In this document: piece by piece, positions 2,627-64,000 of the stretch
Numbering within the stretch: the first letter of the stretch is position 1
Layout of the letters: each line of letters opens with the position of its first letter
Sequence record: PZ256263.1
DNA length: 64,000 bases
Reading direction: 5' to 3' (one strand)
DNA from: a phage
Made by a program: the position numbers and the translations under genes
Notes under the pieces: generated by a model
The model's input: only the letters and a program-made list of their open reading frames with translations
Database searches by the model: none
What the model was told of the DNA's origin: nothing

Positions 2627-3820
2627 ATGTTTCCAGTAACATTAGAAGATACTGAAGGTAATGTTTTAACGGTCAACCCTCCTTGTTATGGGTTCCTTCA
2701 GCTTCGCAACTATAACGGTGGCGTTGATGAAGATGATGACGAAGATGAATACTTCGACCCTAACATGTATGAGGCAACTCATGGGTGGAATATGCACGTT
2801 CGAGTGTGGCATGAAGAAGCTAACGTTCGTAGTGCTGATGGGGAAGAGTTCCTGTTGAGCCGAGAGATGGATATGTGTAAAATCAAGCATATCTGGAACT
2901 CCGGAACTCACATGAAGATGTTAGGTTTTAGACGTTGGCGTGATGAAAAACCTGTATCCGCAGCTTTAGGTTGGGGTGCTATTGATTACGAAGGCGAGCT
3001 TAAAAACAACATTGAACGTTGGAATGACAAAAACCCTGAACATCGAACCACACCTCGTGCTGTACTGGAAGCTATGGAAGCATTTGTGGACAAAGATCGT
3101 CCCTCCTGTTTACGCTGGCACGATAAAGGTTTTATGGGGGTAGCAACTGAAAATGTTCCTGCTGATCGTTGTCTATTCTATTTGATGTTAGATCGAACCT
3201 TCTATTGTGAAGATGAAGAGAGTCAAGTTGAAACCTTCCTCCACAAATGGTTGGTTGAAGGCTGGACAATCCTTCAGTCTTATGTTTACTCACGAATGGT
3301 TAGCACTTACACTAACCTCTTGGGTGAAACGAAAGCAACTCTGGTTGGTAATGATTGGGATGCTTGTATCTTCCCAGCGTCACTATTTACAGTCGGCATG
3401 GCTGATAAATACGCTGAAGCATTTCAAGTGCCTTGGCGTCAACAGTCGTATAGAGACGGGTGTGGTCACTTCCGTGATGAAGACTTTAAGTGGATTCATT
3501 ATGAGAACGATGAAACAGCAGAATTGCGAGTTAACAACTCAATGTTCTTGCCAGTGATGCACCCCGATCTAGTAAAAGATGGGTCAGAGATACTTAAAGG
3601 TGATAATCTTTTGGTTAACTTTACCCGTCGCGTGTCTAAAAATGAGAGAACAGCTAACAGGCTAATCTACGGCATTCGTGCCGAGGCTAAAGACCTGTTC
3701 AACATCTACAACATTATTCAGCGATTTAGTAGTGGAACTCTGGACCAAAGTTCGGAGTATTCAGTGATTCCATCCTCTGAGTGGGATGGTATTATGAGCG
3801 GATTATTTTTAGGAAAATAA
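2627..3820 (+). CDS. hypothetical protein, first gene of amidoligase/GATase cluster
   Basis: Track ORF 397 aa; tightly packed with downstream genes; no recognisable motif. Confidence 0.6.
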   Translation: MFPVTLEDTEGNVLTVNPPCYGFLQLRNYNGGVDEDDDEDEYFDPNMYEATHGWNMHVRVWHEEANVRSADGEEFLLSREMDMCKIKHIWNSGTHMKMLGFRRWRDEKPVSAALGWGAIDYEGELKNNIERWNDKNPEHRTTPRAVLEAMEAFVDKDRPSCLRWHDKGFMGVATENVPADRCLFYLMLDRTFYCEDEESQVETFLHKWLVEGWTILQSYVYSRMVSTYTNLLGETKATLVGNDWDACIFPASLFTVGMADKYAEAFQVPWRQQSYRDGCGHFRDEDFKWIHYENDETAELRVNNSMFLPVMHPDLVKDGSEILKGDNLLVNFTRRVSKNERTANRLIYGIRAEAKDLFNIYNIIQRFSSGTLDQSSEYSVIPSSEWDGIMSGLFLGK

Positions 3821-3830
3821 AAGGTTAGTT

Positions 3831-4802
3831 ATGTCAATCTCCACAACGATCGTACCTCAGAATCTTCAACAAGATTTAGGGGAACAGAAGTTCTTAGGTC
3901 GTGGGTGCTTCGGTATTCACAACTACATGCAAGGCCAGTGTGTAAATGACATTAATGGTGAAGTTATCACGGAAGAAGGGCGCTATCGTCGCTTCAACCG
4001 CGATATCAACTTGCAACTGGAGATGTTGAATTACTGGACTCACTCTTTTCATGGTCATGTTGCATCCGATATTGAAAAGAACTTGATTGAAACAGCGGAC
4101 ATTATGAACTCTATGTCTTGCTATCGTGATGTATTTACAATCACTTCAGCGAACAGTGTTGCTGTCAATCTTCGTGAGCATCCAGCAGATCAGATCTTCA
4201 CAGGACTTATGCTCTTCCGTAGCATTCTGGAAGGGCAGTATCGTGGAATGGATTTCCTAGCAGAAGGAATTGAAGACAGGGAAGAGTGGCTGAAGCGTAA
4301 ACGCATCGGAATCGCTCTAGTGTTAGCTGGGTTAGGTCGTGACTTCTTCGGTGGGTGGTCTCAACGAGGAATAGCCAATGGGAATAGCGAGAGCACCTCT
4401 ATTGTTATTAATAACAATATGTCAGCAGCAGCATTCCTTCCTTTGGTTGTAGACTCTGATGAATACACGAAACAAGTATGGGTTCAAAATCCCTTCGGTG
4501 TTGGTGACAATGAGAATGGTTATGTTCGTAACCATAACCCAGAGGCCTTACGAAGATTTGCTCGTGCTAAAGATCAAGACCCAACTGAGTATGCAACAAT
4601 GTCAGAGTGGTTAAGACTCTGGTCCATCTGTTATGGTCACAAACGTGAAGCAATAGACGACAAGTTGGGAAACATTACAGTACAAAACTTTACAGCCCGA
4701 CTGATTCAAAGAACTGGAGCAGATTCCGGTCTTACTCTTGAAGAAGTTGGTAACACAATCTCATCTCTCTTTTCTGAACTAGTGGAGTATTACAATGACT
4801 AA
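3831..4802 (+). CDS. hypothetical protein (cluster member)
   Basis: Track ORF 323 aa; overlaps next gene start by 8 nt. Confidence 0.6.
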   Translation: MSISTTIVPQNLQQDLGEQKFLGRGCFGIHNYMQGQCVNDINGEVITEEGRYRRFNRDINLQLEMLNYWTHSFHGHVASDIEKNLIETADIMNSMSCYRDVFTITSANSVAVNLREHPADQIFTGLMLFRSILEGQYRGMDFLAEGIEDREEWLKRKRIGIALVLAGLGRDFFGGWSQRGIANGNSESTSIVINNNMSAAAFLPLVVDSDEYTKQVWVQNPFGVGDNENGYVRNHNPEALRRFARAKDQDPTEYATMSEWLRLWSICYGHKREAIDDKLGNITVQNFTARLIQRTGADSGLTLEEVGNTISSLFSELVEYYND

Positions 4803-21745: not shown

Positions 21746-21754
21746 TAATGTATA
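21746..21754 (+). promoter_or_regulatory. TAATGTATA motif, candidate phage-sigma-dependent promoter
   Basis: Exact TAATGTATA 12 nt after phoH stop, about 24 nt upstream of AAGGAG and the ATG at 21791; a second degenerate copy TAATGTACA follows. Confidence 0.5.
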
Positions 21755-60490: not shown

Positions 60491-62032
60491 TTAGTAACTC
60501 TGATTCCATCTGCTTACGTTTGCCTCATACAGAGAAGCACTTCCGTAGCTAACGTCATGTTTAGAACGACCACGATGTGTAACAGAGCACGCTGAATAGC
60601 GCATTGCATCCATTAAGTCATCATGTTCTTTAATAATCTTACCAACCTTACGGTGATATCTAGCTTTCTCTTCGAATAGCTTAGCGTTAGCGGCTGTGTT
60701 AAAGATTTTAAAGCGTCCACTCATCATTCTTTCTCGGATATCTGTGATTCCCGGTTCTACAAAGAAGTTCTTTTTACCATCCATTCCAATTTTGTTGTAG
60801 AAGGTCTCACTCTGTACGTTAACTCCTGCATTCTTATAGAATTGAGCAACAGATGATCCACTACCTTTCTCAATATTGTCCGCATCGTGCGGTAGGATGA
60901 CAGGAATCCACTGACCACGACCATTAATAGCTGGAGCATGATACACTGGAGTAAAGCCACCTTCTTTATATGAGTCGTAAACATAGATAGTATCCGTGTT
61001 TGCATCGTAAGCTGTCCAAACAGCAGCAGTTGGGTGATCAATACCAATATCAATTGCACAGACACGTTTCCACGTATCAGGAATTTCGAATGGTTCACAT
61101 TTAATTGTGTCATCCGATACATCATAAATCAAACCACTTCCTAACAATGGCATACCTTTCGAACGCATTTCTAATTGCCACGCTGGAATACCTTCAGTCA
61201 TATCTTTTATATCTTGGTCAGTGATATGTCCACCTAGGTCTGCATGAGCATCCCACCAAGAAGCATTCTGGAAATATAGAGAACCTGTGTTCTCATCCCC
61301 TTCACCTTTCATAAATTTATCTACCAGTTCAGTTAAACCGTTCTCTGGTGTAGCTGTAATTGTAACTAGACCTTTAGTTGTGAGTGTACGTGTGACGCAC
61401 TGTGCGAATATAGCCATAGACTCGTATGGATCTTCTTCGTCTAACCAAATGTAGTCAACTGTTGCACCCATCAATGTGTGTTCACCCTGTTGGGTTGAAC
61501 GGAATTCTAATGTACTTAAACCGTCAAACTCTCCTCTTTCGTTTTGATGTTTGATTTGTACGATTTGAAGTTTGTTACCATCTCGTTCTATCGTGTCAAT
61601 GACGATAGCATCACGAGGAATGACACCTGTCCCCAATAAGTTTGTATCCTTTCCGATAGGTGTACCAAACAATTCCTTTTGCAATACTTTCCTTGTGGAA
61701 TCCCCTGTAATACCAACTGCCCATGCTAAGATAGGTCTTTTAAATTTATATCCTGTCCACCAAGTTGGGTAGCGACCTGTGACATGACAAGCAAACTCGT
61801 ATGCCTCGCTATAAGATTTACCAACACGGTTCGCTGCACACAAGAATCTAAAGCGATGCTTCAATCCTGCTGCATAAAATTTCTTTTGGAAGTCATACGC
61901 CTTGAAAGACAAAATCTTATTATACTTCCTCCATTGGTCACGCTCTTTCAACATATTCAATAGTGCTTTCTTTTCCTCTACACTAAGATTGTTACCAGTT
62001 AGAGCTTCATAAATTTGTTTATCTAATGACAT
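60491..62032 (-). CDS. terminase large subunit
   Basis: Track ORF 513 aa; deviant Walker A CAANRVGKS, Walker B YIWLDEE, C-terminal nuclease-like region. Confidence 0.85.
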   Translation of the reverse strand: MSLDKQIYEALTGNNLSVEEKKALLNMLKERDQWRKYNKILSFKAYDFQKKFYAAGLKHRFRFLCAANRVGKSYSEAYEFACHVTGRYPTWWTGYKFKRPILAWAVGITGDSTRKVLQKELFGTPIGKDTNLLGTGVIPRDAIVIDTIERDGNKLQIVQIKHQNERGEFDGLSTLEFRSTQQGEHTLMGATVDYIWLDEEDPYESMAIFAQCVTRTLTTKGLVTITATPENGLTELVDKFMKGEGDENTGSLYFQNASWWDAHADLGGHITDQDIKDMTEGIPAWQLEMRSKGMPLLGSGLIYDVSDDTIKCEPFEIPDTWKRVCAIDIGIDHPTAAVWTAYDANTDTIYVYDSYKEGGFTPVYHAPAINGRGQWIPVILPHDADNIEKGSGSSVAQFYKNAGVNVQSETFYNKIGMDGKKNFFVEPGITDIRERMMSGRFKIFNTAANAKLFEEKARYHRKVGKIIKEHDDLMDAMRYSACSVTHRGRSKHDVSYGSASLYEANVSRWNQSY

Positions 62033-62101
62033 ACTTCCTCCAGTTTAAAAATAGAAAAGGGAAAGTCCCTTCGTCAAAGAACCTCCCCTTCTTTCCTTTA
62101 C

Positions 62102-62575
62102 TTAACTCTCGTCCGCTTCCTCCCCCTTTTCAGCGTTCTCAGAGTTGTCTTCTTCTGGAGGCATAACGTCGATACCAAGTGCTCCAGTCAAGAAGTCCTT
62201 GATTTGTGCATTCAGTGATTCTTCGTTGATTACATTCTCTTCCTCAATCTTAACTTCAACAGAGGCCGCCTTAGGATATACCAGATCTGCAACTTTTGAT
62301 GCAGCCTTGAATCTAAGATCGGGTGGAATATTAGGATCTTCGTAAATTTGAATTAACACTTCATCAGGAGACAAATGACTTGCAGCAACACGGTCCAACA
62401 TTAATTGTGTCAGTTTACCTCTACTACCTCTGGGTCGTCCGAATTTATTTCCCTTTTGAAACTTCCCATTGCTTGGGTTCATACCACGGCCTTCAAGTTC
62501 TTCCGTTACTCCGGGTAATCTTCCTGTAATCTCAGCTACCTGTGCAGGCGTGAGTTCTCCGTTTTCTCCAAACAT
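62102..62575 (-). CDS. putative terminase small subunit
   Basis: Track ORF 157 aa directly upstream of terminase large; basic GRPRGSRGK segment, acidic C-terminus. Confidence 0.5.
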   Translation of the reverse strand: MFGENGELTPAQVAEITGRLPGVTEELEGRGMNPSNGKFQKGNKFGRPRGSRGKLTQLMLDRVAASHLSPDEVLIQIYEDPNIPPDLRFKAASKVADLVYPKAASVEVKIEEENVINEESLNAQIKDFLTGALGIDVMPPEEDNSENAEKGEEADES

Positions 62576-62600
62576 TTTATACTCCTTCTACATTATCAAC

Positions 62601-62626
62601 AACACAAAAAGCCTCCCAACGGAGGC
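62601..62626 (-). terminator. rho-independent terminator upstream of the terminase genes
   Basis: Minus RNA gccucc-guug-ggaggc followed by uuuuuguguu. Confidence 0.5.
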
Positions 62627-62631
62627 AAATA

Positions 62632-63264
62632 TTACTTACAATCACCAACGGACAGGTTAAACATCTTACCTAGAGCAATCGTCTCACCTTCCCACGGAAG
62701 TTCTGCACCCTTCTCTTCCTCTAAAAGAATAGAGCCGTCGACCAAAAATTTTTCGTAGTCTCGCAGTGCGTCGTCTACTAGCTCACTCTTGTGAATCCAC
62801 GTAATTGTTTCTGTACCATCCTCTTCGATTCTAACATCACGATGCCATTCATCTTTGGAGGTAATATAATCATGGAGCATTTCGTATTCAGCTTCTTCAA
62901 TCATCTCAATCATTGCACGAGCATAGTCAGGGAGGTGATCATGTTTAGTAGATTCGTATTCAACTACTTCCAGAGTAGAAGGCTTAGCCCGTGCAACTTC
63001 TTCAAGTACTTTTGAGCGATCTTTGTAGTAGTTCTCATATTTATCACCAATAGTACCGACTTGAAGTCCACGGTATTGTTCTACTAAACTCATCATATCT
63101 TTCTTCTCCGTAATAGTTGGTTTAAGAATACTTCCACTATATAAATCTTGTACAGCCAATCCTGAAACATTTCCCATAGTTTCTAAATGCTGTAAGCTAC
63201 AACCAGAACGACATAGCTGTGAATTGTAATCGTTAAGGTCCATCGCTTGGATTAAATTATTCAT
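62632..63264 (-). CDS. hypothetical protein
   Basis: Track ORF 62632-63339; start moved to ATG at 63264 with GGGAGA upstream. Confidence 0.5.
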   Translation of the reverse strand: MNNLIQAMDLNDYNSQLCRSGCSLQHLETMGNVSGLAVQDLYSGSILKPTITEKKDMMSLVEQYRGLQVGTIGDKYENYYKDRSKVLEEVARAKPSTLEVVEYESTKHDHLPDYARAMIEMIEEAEYEMLHDYITSKDEWHRDVRIEEDGTETITWIHKSELVDDALRDYEKFLVDGSILLEEEKGAELPWEGETIALGKMFNLSVGDCK

Positions 63265-63511
63265 TTGTATCTCCCTTGCTGTAATCTTTGTATGTTTCTT
63301 TTCTGTAAGTGCGGAATGCTCTGAAGAAGAGCCAACCAAAACTACTTACATCAATAGTAATATCGAAATCTGTTTCATCATCTAAGTCAACAAGTCGACC
63401 TAAGCACGTATCTTCCATCCCTTCTTCAGAGTCACTGTTGACCACGAAAGCGTATGTCTCCGTTCTGAACCGAGGCACCATCTCTGATAAAAAGTCTAAT
63501 ACTAAATTCAT
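63257..63511 (-). CDS. hypothetical acidic protein
   Basis: Track ORF 63257-63547; start moved to ATG at 63511 with GAGGAGAAG upstream. Confidence 0.45.
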   Translation of the reverse strand: MNLVLDFLSEMVPRFRTETYAFVVNSDSEEGMEDTCLGRLVDLDDETDFDITIDVSSFGWLFFRAFRTYRKETYKDYSKGDTNE

Positions 63512-63668
63512 AATTCTTCTCCTCTGAATAAGATTCAATCTACCCATTCACCGTTGCCACCTTTTTGGTAGAACCATGCATTGCGGGATACTGAGTACAC
63601 TATGTCCTTATAAATCAAGGAGTGTAGTTCTTTTAAAAACCTCATATTCTATCCTCTGAATAAAAGTA

Positions 63669-63784
63669 TAAAGGGCTAGGCATATCTAACCCGTAAAGGC
63701 CTCCTCATACCAACAACCCGTGATCGCTGAAGTAAAGGGCATGTCATAAAGGGGACTTCATAAAGGCCATGTCACGTTAAGGCC
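63669..63784. repeat. cluster of about six direct repeats of TAAAGG(G/C)(G/C), including two TCATAAAGG copies 14 bp apart
   Basis: Read directly at about 63669, 63694, 63733, 63747, 63761 and 63777 in the gap upstream of the leftward module. Confidence 0.5.
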
Positions 63785-63983
63785 TATCCATCCATGTGCT
63801 GTGCTTAAGCTTACCACATTCACTACATCTCCAAGTGGATTTATAAAGGGTGTGAACTCTTTCATCCCCGTAAGCTTTGCGTATCCGATAGTACTCATGA
63901 TTACATTTGAATTGCTTAATGATTAACTTAATTTTCCACATAAGTTCTCTTTCAACCTTATATATAAGAGTTTTAAATTTCAA
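63777..63983 (-). CDS. small Cys/His-rich zinc-finger-like protein
   Basis: Track ORF 68 aa; CNHEY ... CSECGKLKH. Confidence 0.4.
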   Translation of the reverse strand: MKFKTLIYKVERELMWKIKLIIKQFKCNHEYYRIRKAYGDERVHTLYKSTWRCSECGKLKHSTWMDRP

Positions 63984-64000
63984 TTTGACCGAGTGGGGCT

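Follow-up and report, generated by a model that had tools for sequence, protein, structure and literature searches.

Results

The window analyzed here, a 64,000-nucleotide stretch of sequence record PZ256263.1, comes from a Kuravirus, a coliphage with podophage morphology resembling phiEco32 and SU10, and is presented in reverse orientation. Its base 64000 aligned to position 194 in SU10, phiEco32, ES17, and other relatives. A terminal repeat of 193 bp has been described in SU10 and phiEco32 (PMC4281155) and is also annotated in phages Paul and 4E8; judging from the alignment, base 64000 is the first base past the 193-bp left direct terminal repeat, and the window does not include the repeat.

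The gene that comes first after the left terminal repeat, gene 1 (63777 to 63941, minus strand), encodes a 54-amino-acid zinc-finger-like protein (CxH…CxxC), for which the ATG at 63941 is the most likely start rather than the TTG at 63983 chosen in the first-pass annotation. The gene 1 product (gp1) matches PHROG 7696, a family of unknown function, has one match in a large protein database, and has no significant match in Pfam or PDB. Between the repeat boundary and gene 1 (63942 to 64000, minus strand) is a conserved sequence, TTGAAATTTAAAACTCTTATATATAAGG, a putative promoter of the sigma-70 type driving the left-end operon; the same stretch appears in SU10 Table S2 among the potential sigma-70 promoters and is annotated as a promoter in phage 4E8, and it scores below the threshold of our sigma-70 promoter scan. 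On the other side of gene 1, the gap that had been taken to be empty from 63511 contains a 36-amino-acid open reading frame (ORF; 63535 to 63645), common to the window and phage NJ01, and the intergenic gap proper runs from 63646 to 63776. The leader and ribosome-binding site of this ORF occupy 63646 to 63668 (minus strand; TACTTTTATTCAGAGGATAGAAT), with a core that recurs upstream of gene 4, and a 12-bp direct repeat, TCCTCTGAATAA, at 63520 to 63531 and 63652 to 63663 brackets the ORF as a cassette.

Farther downstream on the minus strand, an intrinsic terminator (62611 to 62626), which is not part of the array described below, stands just before the gp36-type late promoter of the packaging operon (62587 to 62595; TAATGTAGA), about 1.1 kb downstream of that array; the SU10 late promoter is given as gttgataatgtagaaggag in Table S2. 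Directly upstream of the large terminase gene, a 157-amino-acid protein is encoded (62102 to 62575, minus strand). It has a weak match to DUF5681 in Pfam, its AlphaFold model has a pLDDT of 67, and its Foldseek matches are all nonsignificant, including those to the NV1 and PaP3 small terminases (E of ~2 to 3); a PDB sequence search returned nothing that settles small-terminase identity. From its position and these nonsignificant similarities, we consider this protein a candidate small terminase and a candidate binder of the array.

TAAAGG(G/C) occurs on the plus strand at 63669, 63694, 63733, 63747, and 63761, with an imperfect sixth copy, TTAAGGCC, at 63778, and TCATAAAGG occurs twice, at 63744 and 63758, an offset of 14 bp. 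The first-pass annotation had reported about six copies, two of them 14 bp apart, and this description is borne out. Its proposed check on motif frequency gave a split answer. TAAAGGS is not enriched across the window (13 observed versus 14.33 expected), but five copies fall on one strand inside 99 bp, and the maximum same-strand count per 125 bp was 5, compared with at most 3 in any of 2,000 permutation shuffles; by the same measure, the extended pattern TG-N6-CCTTWA reached 6, compared with at most 2. When the number of windows is corrected for, a Poisson estimate puts the clustering at ~1e-8. The repeats are real and nonrandom.

Read in phage orientation, the repeated unit proves to be not the 8- to 9-bp motif first described but a bipartite 15-bp element, RTGR-N4-S-CCTTWA, of which six copies (E1 to E6) lie on the minus strand between 63669 and 63791. 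Four head-to-tail units (14/16 bp) are followed by a conserved 24-bp spacer and two further units, and the successive element spacings are 16, 14, 14, 39, and 25 bp. E1 (63777 to 63791; ATGGATAGGCCTTAA) overlaps the 3' end of gene 1, including its stop (…M D R P *), and reads (G/A)GCCTTAA wherever it adjoins the array. E2 (63761 to 63775; GTGACATGGCCTTTA) has an ortholog in most of 14 relatives, and E3 (63747 to 63761; ATGAAGTCCCCTTTA), whose first A is the last A of E2 (a 14-bp period), is likewise found again in most of them; E4 (63733 to 63747; ATGACATGCCCTTTA) ends the head-to-tail run. The spacer (63709 to 63732, minus strand; CTTCAGCGATCACGGGTTGTTGGT) contains the cores TCAGCG and ACGGGTT, both nearly invariant in the alignment. 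Directly after E5 (63694 to 63708; ATGAGGAGGCCTTTA) comes an invariant CGGGT, and GCCTTTAyGGG at this element is unchanged in 10 of 10 aligned relatives. From the CCTTTA end of E6 (63669 to 63683; ATGCCTAGCCCTTTA) to the ATG of the next ORF is 23 nt, and the distance from E6 to the leader sequence TTATTCAGAGGAG is identical among Kuravirus relatives.

A search conditioned only on CCTTWA yielded 65 distinct instances, of which ~61 read R-T-G-R at positions -9 to -6 and in which the 4 to 5 bases separating the half-sites were uninformative. The half-sites are conserved at a fixed separation of 9 bp, with variable bases in between. All six copies in the window fit the RTGR/CCTTWA rule, each with a different internal spacer; without the RTG half, a TAAAGGG at 63844, in gene 1, is no element. 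The rest of the 64-kb window holds five element matches, compared with 4.7 expected by chance, and the remaining 14 kb of SU10 adds one copy only, inverted and within the terminal repeat. A genome-wide transcription motif would not show such confinement to a single locus.

The array is conserved but was previously undescribed and unannotated. When related phages were compared, five to seven elements were present in each of 14 genomes from three genera (Kuravirus, Suseptimavirus, and Nieuwekanaalvirus), among which spacers, copy number, and neighboring small ORFs differ and the genes flanking the array are only ~60 to 70% identical between genera. BLAST found the array in 86 records, every one from the same subfamily, and an exact-pattern scan of IMG/VR recovered the same phage group, unrelated giant-virus tandem repeats, and nothing else; a search with the gene 4 protein likewise returned no relatives beyond the subfamily. 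Two more distant, metagenomic genomes (L035 and L036) have no homologs of gene 1 or gene 4 and carry a three-element tandem cluster 60 to 100 bp upstream of a small-terminase-like gene. TCAGCGG follows the array in both, and L036, without gene 1, has GTGAATAGGCCTTAAC, near-identical to E1. In two other distant genomes (L037 and L038), no such elements were found, though a homologous small-terminase-like protein (50 to 61% identity) is present. The suggestion of an iteron-like protein-binding array fits this picture of fixed half-sites, head-to-tail copies, and an array kept in three genera amid changing surroundings.

Copy number shifts by whole 14- to 16-bp units, and small ORFs (phi32_2/3, a transmembrane ORF, and the 36-amino-acid ORF with its flanking 12-bp repeat) are inserted exactly at the array borders, as might be expected if the elements were tandem-duplication remnants with no dedicated function, serving as microhomologies for the swapping of small gene cassettes. 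We regard this as improbable: neutral duplicates should decay uniformly, whereas the half-sites are conserved while the intervening bases diverge both within genomes and between genera, and the array is kept in the different gene context of L035 and L036. In four genomes, a small-ORF insertion shifts E1 ~94 bp from the array, and E1 is altered in three of them, which suggests that contiguity of the elements matters.

The array had also been proposed to serve a regulator of late transcription, a role contradicted by the presence of a separate gp36-type promoter for the packaging operon with a terminator ahead of it. The gp36 late-promoter consensus, tAATGTAtA (PMC8948821; PMC4281155), sits 6 to 8 bp upstream of the transcript start. 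With one mismatch allowed, it was not found between 63600 and 63800, the nearest site being that at 62587 to 62595; perfect matches in the window are at 21746, 28702, 28763, 38595, 55172, and 62587. With the consensus absent and the late promoter and terminator placed at 62587 to 62626, the array as a gp36 late promoter is ruled out. The gp36 promoters and the array have in common that each is a short conserved intergenic DNA motif of the same phage group; their sequences are unrelated, and gp36 sites are dispersed, whereas the CCTTWA element is found in one array only. A sigma-70 scan (-35 and -10 hexamers, 16- to 18-bp spacer) returned no site above threshold between 63600 and 63800, and manual trials with TGACAT as a -35 or TATACT as a -10 gave spacings that were wrong or nonconserved. 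By-eye comparison with the sites for sigma-32, sigma-28, integration host factor (IHF), the TyrR box, and the pho box produced no fit.

A more local role in transcription deserves separate weighing, as the array falls inside a transcription unit, with gene 1 on one side and the next ORF on the other. Here, it could act as an operator or roadblock of the left-end operon, at which a bound phage or host protein controls read-through from the gene 1 promoter to the genes downstream or activates a noncanonical promoter at the last element. The fixed distance from that element to the conserved leader TTATTCAGAGGAG would suit such a role, as would the same CCCTTTATGTCTT…ATCAGAGGG head standing before the inserted gene 2 in phiEco32 and FH3, and a terminator scan detected a weak hairpin (63673 to 63692) with a following T-run between E5 and E6, a hairpin that Suseptimavirus does not conserve. 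The gap between the last element and the ATG nevertheless varies by genus (25, 29, and 37 nt), no further gene start in 78 kb carries the element, the array has neither a sigma-70 promoter by our scan nor the gp36 consensus, and the cluster in L035 and L036 lies between a gene and a terminator-like hairpin. The zinc-finger-like gene 1 product, encoded beside the array, would be a candidate regulator, but gene 1 is absent from L035 and L036, where arrays persist, so gp1 cannot be the general binder and its candidacy is weakened. Overall, we judge an operator unlikely.

At the level of RNA, each element reads ATG/GTG-N6-CCT-TTA(-TGA), position -9 is solely A or G and in frame with CCT-TTA/TAA, and in the window a chain of such mini-ORFs runs via ATGA overlaps from the gene 1 stop to the ATG of the 36-amino-acid ORF. 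Overlapping mini-ORFs (MTWPL*, MKSPL*) could relay or stall ribosomes through these ATGA junctions. In-frame stops between the start and CCT, however, interrupt element 3 in phage Paul and element 4 in four genomes of Suseptimavirus, with CCTTWA kept, and the in-frame stop frequency is close to the chance rate. Neither the lengths nor the frames of the ORFs are conserved, the spacings (25, 27, 37 to 40, and 16 bp) do not follow multiples of three, and the W position is T or A only, with other stop and sense options never seen. The array has no Rfam match at an E value of ≤1, and its predicted fold has compensatory changes in 0 of 18 pairs and a folding z-score of -1.42, results that rule out a structured RNA and also speak against a translational device. 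An inverted copy, moreover, lies in the terminal repeat, a nontranscribed context. Tandem MxxPL* mini-ORFs as peptide-coding units are rejected given the tolerated stops and the lack of ORF conservation, and we consider a translational role of any kind very improbable.

An origin element was a further possibility raised at the outset, and it found no positive support. In form, direct repeats close to a genome end resemble origin iterons such as the four O-binding repeats of lambda, which are likewise binding sites repeated directly and in tandem, and T7 has secondary origins near its ends; the elements could load a phage initiator, primase, or helicase or prime replication of the genome end. 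Unlike origin iterons, however, the array adjoins no initiator-like gene, DnaA-box cluster, or AT-rich unwinding element, and its units are shorter (14 to 16 bp versus 17 to 22 bp). The one DnaA-box match, at 63932, is at chance level, the array is slightly higher in G+C than its surroundings, and GC skew changes sign only at ~34 kb, coinciding with a change in gene direction. A replication function is accordingly quite doubtful.

The remaining evidence concerns the genome end. In the window, the array lies 210 to 331 bp inside the left-repeat boundary. The terminal repeats of Kuravirus and Suseptimavirus carry one inverted copy of the element, TTGGCAATGCCTTTA, and T-expanded look-alikes, ATGAGGACTCCCCTTTTTTA, lie 21 nt from the right boundary of the repeat (PMC4281155). 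E3 is similar to a conserved terminal-repeat motif, ATGAGGACTCCCC(C)TTTT. The inverted copy was not found in the terminal-repeat ends of L035 and L036. On the right flank of the SU10 repeat, there are zero CCTTWA elements and a different repeat, CACGGGG; a CCTTAA that SU10 has immediately left of its right terminal repeat was considered as a junction-flanking copy and dropped, as it is missing in FH3. In the Gordonclarkvirinae, gene 1 sits between the array and the terminal repeat, and two genes, a terminator, and a promoter stand between the array and the terminase genes.

In T7, the genome end with the early genes is the first to enter the cell and the last to be packaged. For the present group, early sigma-70 promoters have been mapped experimentally at the right end (PMC8948821; SU10 Table S2). 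Because these promoters sit on the right, the left end, by the T7 logic of entry and packaging, would be the end at which packaging starts. The left end also has a predicted sigma-70 promoter, which makes this assignment of the first-entering end tentative.

Discussion

The most plausible reading of the array is a site for DNA packaging or for recognition of the genome end, and not a promoter. Such a role, also among those first suggested, is the best fit because the array lies near the repeat boundary, the terminal repeat contains element-like sequences, and in distant relatives the array is found directly upstream of terminase genes. The comparisons show the elements, their two-part structure and conservation, and where they stand relative to the terminal repeat and the terminase genes, and they remove several other roles; from these sequence relationships, we infer binding of the elements by a protein, the identity of that protein, and the link to packaging. 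We assign a probability of roughly 0.4 to an array that is bound cooperatively by a protein of packaging or end processing, probably the small terminase. The array would then be a cis-acting DNA site in the genome-end (concatemer-junction) region, where the six 15-bp elements may be occupied head-to-tail and cooperatively by a DNA-binding protein of the phage; the oligomeric small terminase, encoded ~1.1 kb downstream, is the most likely one. The complex formed in this way would flag the left end of every genome unit in the replicative concatemer and could serve the start of packaging, the cutting and duplication of the 193-bp terminal repeat, or both. Several observations weigh against this reading: L037 and L038 have the small-terminase-like protein and none of the elements, the array in the Gordonclarkvirinae is set apart from both the terminal repeat and the terminase genes, and the right flank of the repeat carries CACGGGG in place of the element.

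Arrays bound by terminase small subunits include lambda cosB (R3-I1-R2-R1), the hexamer repeats of P1 pac, and the SPP1 pacL and pacR boxes. Like these, the array consists of several short sites clustered within ~120 to 160 bp, inward of the cut that forms the genome end and upstream of the terminase genes (directly so in L035 and L036 and at 1.1 kb in the window). Lambda, P1, and SPP1 are cos or headful phages, whereas the window phage has direct terminal repeats, and their sites measure 6, 7, or 16 bp, have mixed orientation, and are accompanied by a host-factor bend site. No IHF-type site was found in the array, and its distance to the cut is larger, about 215 bp.

A bolder and rather unlikely proposal is that phiEco32-like phages define their genome ends by a dedicated array. 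In this scheme, the small terminase or another end-binding protein would form a filament or wrapped ring on the six 15-bp elements, loop out gene 1, and contact related sequences within the terminal repeat, and the assembled complex would direct the cutting by which the 193-bp repeat arises and is duplicated. The phiEco32-like phages are without an RNA polymerase of their own, and the route of T7, whose polymerase pauses at the concatemer junction and there recruits terminase, would therefore not be usable by them. If this proposal were true, the T7-like short-repeat arrays would gain a tractable functional model; were the array merely a local operator, the finding would be an ordinary one.

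How ends are recognized, cut, and duplicated in podophages with short direct terminal repeats is understood for T7 and T3 only, where it proceeds via the phage RNA polymerase, and the array offers a specific, conserved candidate for the cis-acting component of an end-forming mechanism. It is small (~125 bp, six defined sites) and amenable to direct experiment. It also provides a landmark for orienting and trimming assemblies of Kuravirus and Suseptimavirus, many of which are deposited circularly permuted. A packaging signal would, in addition, be relevant to the engineering of transducing particles, and several of these phages are therapy candidates.

The closest parallel in architecture is T7, in which Dunn and Studier are said to have described, in 1983, the SRL and SRR arrays of CCTAAAG heptamers flanking the 160-bp terminal repeat. 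In the T7 sequence, we located heptamers at 175 to 361 with a 13-bp spacing, beginning 15 bp after the repeat, and three copies within positions 1 to 160. We know of no established function for SRL and SRR, and a literature search on the subject found no account of one; the analogy therefore transfers no mechanism. Each phage is a podophage whose terminal repeat is short, direct, and exact, and in each, a run of short direct repeats with a 12- to 16-bp period occupies noncoding DNA a short way in from the left repeat. The unit in T7 is a heptamer and the element here is bipartite and 15 bp long, the shared sequence is a TAAAG core only, on opposite strands relative to the genome end, and the copies number six here and ~13 in T7. 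A small gene (gene 1) separates the array from the repeat here, and within the repeat the three heptamers of T7 compare with one inverted copy and the T-expanded look-alikes in the window phage group. T7 also has its motif on both flanks, whereas the right flank here has CACGGGG instead. As a side observation, ACACGGG in the conserved spacer echoes the CACGGGG repeats of the terminal repeat.

An array of bipartite 15-bp elements

Five copies of TAAAGGS lie on one strand within positions 63669-63767, including two TCATAAAGG copies 14 bp apart, and a repeat finder returned three contiguous 14-bp units at 63733-63774. The motif shows no global enrichment, with 13 copies observed in the window versus 14.3 expected. 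However, none of 2,000 permutations produced more than 3 same-strand copies within 125 bp, compared to the 5 observed, and the Poisson probability is estimated at ~1e-8 after correction for all window positions. The iteron-like TAAAGG(G/C)(G/C) cluster that a first-pass annotation placed at 63669-63784 is thus real as a local concentration of the motif, not as a window-wide excess.

We derived the repeated element from every CCTTWA between gene 1, which encodes a 54-aa zinc-finger-like protein (gp1), and gene 4 in 14 genomes, imposing no other condition. The collection revealed an upstream half-site, RTGR, at positions -9 to -6, where T (-8) and G (-7) are each present in 61 of 65 distinct instances; position -1 is S, and the 4 to 5 bases between half-sites are nearly information-free. 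The element is RTGR-N4-S-CCTTWA, 15 bp in length, and occurs on the minus strand as E1 (ATGGATAGGCCTTAA, 63777-63791), E2 (GTGACATGGCCTTTA, 63761-63775), E3 (ATGAAGTCCCCTTTA, 63747-63761), E4 (ATGACATGCCCTTTA, 63733-63747), E5 (ATGAGGAGGCCTTTA, 63694-63708), and E6 (ATGCCTAGCCCTTTA, 63669-63683). These six are among 11 window matches to TG-N6-CCTTWA (4.7 expected), the remaining five being scattered at the chance rate. A TAAAGGG at 63844, inside gene 1, was rejected as an element because it lacks the RTG half.

Position at the left genome end

A megablast search with 62000-64000 returned ~95 phages of Escherichia and Shigella belonging to the phiEco32 group, with identities reaching 99%; ES17, SU10, CHD5UKE1, and phiEco32 (Kuravirus, Gordonclarkvirinae) are among them. 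Relative to the orientation customary in GenBank, the window is reverse-complemented, and in entries starting at the physical left end the match begins at position 194. Given the 193-bp direct terminal repeat of phiEco32 and SU10 (PMC4281155), this is the first base past the repeat, so window base 64000 marks the terminal-repeat boundary and the array sits 210 to 331 bp inside the left genome end. Comparison with SU10, phiEco32, and ES17 puts base 64000 exactly one position past their left repeat; it is likely that the source record was submitted as the reverse complement and lacks its left repeat copy.

All left-end genes are on the minus strand and run leftward: gene 1 (63777-63941), the array, a 36-aa ORF (MRFLKELHSLIYKDIVYSVSRNAWFYQKGGNGEWVD, 63535-63645), homologs of gene 4 (63257-63511) and gene 5 (62632-63264), an intrinsic terminator (62611-62626), a gp36-type late promoter (TAATGTAGA, 62587-62595), a 157-aa small-terminase-like ORF (62102-62575), the large terminase gene (60491-62032), and portal. 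The label "ABC transporter" that RefSeq and PHROGs (phrog_12176) give to the gene 5 homolog looks like a propagated misannotation; Pfam returned neither an ABC domain nor any other significant domain.

Conservation among related phages

We compared Kuravirus (SU10, phiEco32, Paul, WFI101126, NJ01, XT18, FH3, and 4E8), Suseptimavirus (101114UKE3, SU7, IME267, and ECBP2), and Nieuwekanaalvirus (EP335) genomes. Every one carries 5 to 7 elements in one common orientation, arranged as a head-to-tail run at 14/16 bp, a 37- to 57-bp gap with near-invariant TCAGCGTACAYGGGTT, and two further elements. The array is both statistically robust and conserved in at least three genera, conservation in relatives being one of the checks that the first-pass annotation had proposed. 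Relative to SU7 and EP335, nucleotide identity is 61 to 63% in the noncoding array and 59 to 71% in flanking genes; the array is about as conserved as its neighbors. A BLAST search with the 129-bp array alone matched 86 records, all from the subfamily Gordonclarkvirinae. The array was previously unannotated: none of the 86 records marks a regulatory feature there, and neither the SU10 paper (PMC4281155) nor its promoter table mentions it.

Whole units come and go, SU10 and Paul having one extra 16-bp unit relative to the window, and in the relatives compared small-ORF insertions fall exactly on array borders. In phiEco32 and FH3, phi32_2/3 separate the two sub-arrays; in WFI101126, XT18, 4E8, and ECBP2, a transmembrane ORF separates the array from gene 1; and in the window and NJ01, the 36-aa ORF comes after E6, with a copy of a duplicated 12-bp leader on either side. 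The array could be a remnant of cassette exchange without dedicated function, which we consider unlikely; half-sites are retained while spacers vary from copy to copy. E1 is (G/A)GCCTTAA in all cases abutting the array and is altered (CCGTAA, GTCTTAA, and ACCTTAA) in three of the four genomes where the transmembrane ORF displaces it by ~94 bp.

The duplication bracketing the 36-aa ORF is an exact direct repeat, TCCTCTGAATAA (63520-63531 and 63652-63663), comprising the leader and ribosome-binding site of the downstream gene. This ORF, absent from SU10, phiEco32, and Paul, looks like a small gene cassette inserted at the leader by recombination. Some relatives (L012 [XT18], ~1060-1100; L015 [KBNP1711]; and L024) have a short perfect hairpin, GTCATC-N3-GATGAC, between the sub-arrays, just upstream of the fifth element.

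Terminal-repeat motifs and comparison with T7

Across the 14 kb of SU10 that lie beyond the window span, the sole further element is an inverted copy within the terminal repeat, and Suseptimavirus terminal repeats hold two inverted TAAAGGC copies. Conservation within the repeat is highest at ATGAGGACTCCCC(C)TTTT(TT)A, 21 nt from the right boundary; this stretch looks like a T-expanded element (compare E3), and its T-run length varies among SU10 reads (PMC4281155). CACGGGG repeats in the terminal repeat and its right flank echo ACACGGG and TTTACGGGT inside the array, so the whole junction region appears to be built from a small motif vocabulary.

This second family, (C)ACGGGG(A), has three copies inside the SU10 terminal repeat (L002 1-193, L003 1136-1328), two or three in noncoding DNA left of the SU10 right terminal repeat (L003 790-860), and ~10 in the junction region of the metagenomic relative L038 (2450-3080); on the right flank, this family may be the counterpart to the CCTTWA array. 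Immediately inside the terminal repeat (window 63942-64000), TTTGAAATT(T)TAAA-CTCTTATATATAAGG is conserved even in the distant relatives L035 to L037, where it lies upstream of the first rightward gene and is better conserved than the genes after it. The SU10 and 4E8 annotations mark this sequence as a possible sigma-70 promoter, although its 15-bp spacer is atypical.

The closest described structure is the SRL/SRR pair of T7 (NC_001604), in which CCTAAAG heptamers with a 13-bp period occupy positions 175 to 361, just past the 160-bp repeat, with three copies within the terminal repeat and looser copies on the right flank. The layout is common to both, and the Kuravirus period of 14 to 16 bp is close to that of T7. 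However, the Kuravirus unit is bipartite and 15 bp rather than a heptamer, is unrelated to CCTAAAG in sequence, occurs in fewer copies and on one flank only, and is separated from the terminal repeat by a small gene. The array thus resembles an SRL-type array in appearance and may do so in function, without being a sequence member of that family.

Transcription, replication, and RNA

The gp36 promoter consensus, tAATGTAtA (PMC8948821), is absent from the array and occurs instead at 62587-62595, behind the terminator, which contradicts the suggested role in late transcription and led us to reject the array as a late promoter. A local operator or roadblock array is a doubtful alternative, given that this consensus is missing and no sigma-70 site reached the scan threshold within the array. 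The suggested origin fared no better: near the array there is no initiator gene, DnaA-box cluster, or AT-rich block, and GC skew tracks gene direction only, leaving a replication element improbable.

In each element, an initial ATG or GTG shares its reading frame with CCT-TTA or CCT-TAA, as a device acting on RNA or translation, including at the ribosome, might require, and window elements yield overlapping, ATGA-linked MTWPL* and MKSPL* ORFs. We rejected peptide-coding mini-ORFs because in-frame stops occur inside elements of Paul and four Suseptimavirus genomes at about the chance rate and neither ORF lengths nor frames are conserved. With these stops tolerated, no Rfam match, an alignment fold devoid of compensatory pairs, and a z-score of -1.42 for folding, such a device is very unlikely.

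At 62587-62626, a strong terminator (GCCTCCGTTGGGAGGC plus a T-run), 15 nt, the gp36-type promoter, 11 nt, and the small-terminase-like ATG form a compact point of switching from the early to the late transcription unit of the left end. Perfect TAATGTATA matches at 21746, 28702, 28763, 38595, and 55172 correspond to middle/late gp36 promoters published for phiEco32 and SU10; the 28702 (-) and 28763 (+) matches make up a divergent pair 60 bp apart. Inside the packaging operon, a long terminator-like hairpin (17 pairs, 62055-62092) occupies the gap between the small-terminase-like ORF and large terminase, a region listed as a possible sigma-70 promoter in SU10 Table S2.

Distant relatives and proposed role

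Homologs of the 157-aa protein led to more distant relatives on metagenomic contigs of 40 to 100 kb. L035 and L036 (69 to 77% identity to this protein) lack homologs of both gene 1 and gene 4 within 8.4 kb, yet both carry a three-element tandem cluster with 15- to 16-bp spacing, followed by TCAGCGG and a terminator-like hairpin, 60 to 100 bp upstream of the small-terminase-like start codon, and two or three extra elements nearer the conserved terminal-repeat end motif. The array thus travels with the terminal repeat and terminase module rather than with gene 1 or gene 4. The first L036 element, GTGAATAGGCCTTAAC, closely matches E1 where no gene ends, so E1 conservation is not a by-product of coding Asp-Arg-Pro-stop. 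No elements were found in L037 or L038 (50 to 61% identity).

Conserved bipartite half-sites and a common orientation across at least three genera argue for the protein-binding array originally proposed. Half-sites about one helical turn apart, contiguous head-to-tail units, strict orientation, and a single locus fit cooperative binding by a protein oligomer. From published dimensions of small-terminase rings, the 14- to 16-bp period would be close to that needed for DNA to wrap around such a ring. Of the three roles first suggested, packaging fits best, and we tentatively favor, at a probability of about 40%, a recognition array for packaging or end processing: it adjoins the terminal repeat, element-like sequences recur within that repeat, and in distant relatives it is retained a short distance upstream of the terminase genes. 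Its functional analogues would be lambda cosB, P1 pac, and SPP1 pac, which are defined by terminase binding. Early sigma-70 promoters map to the right end, opposite the array (PMC8948821; SU10 Table S2); by T7 logic, we infer that the left end may be packaged first.

Of the candidate binders, gp1 yielded nothing informative in family, PDB, or database comparisons, and L035 and L036 keep their arrays without it. The 157-aa protein is a candidate small terminase by position, with a weak DUF5681 match and a mostly helical model (pLDDT, 67); its Foldseek matches, all nonsignificant, include the NV1 and PaP3 small terminases. In L036, four CCTTTA motifs fall in the 5' part of the gene-5-like ORF (3259-3846), and two of these, ATGACTAGGCCTTTACGGG among them, are full elements; either the 5' gene call is wrong or elements can be embedded in coding DNA.
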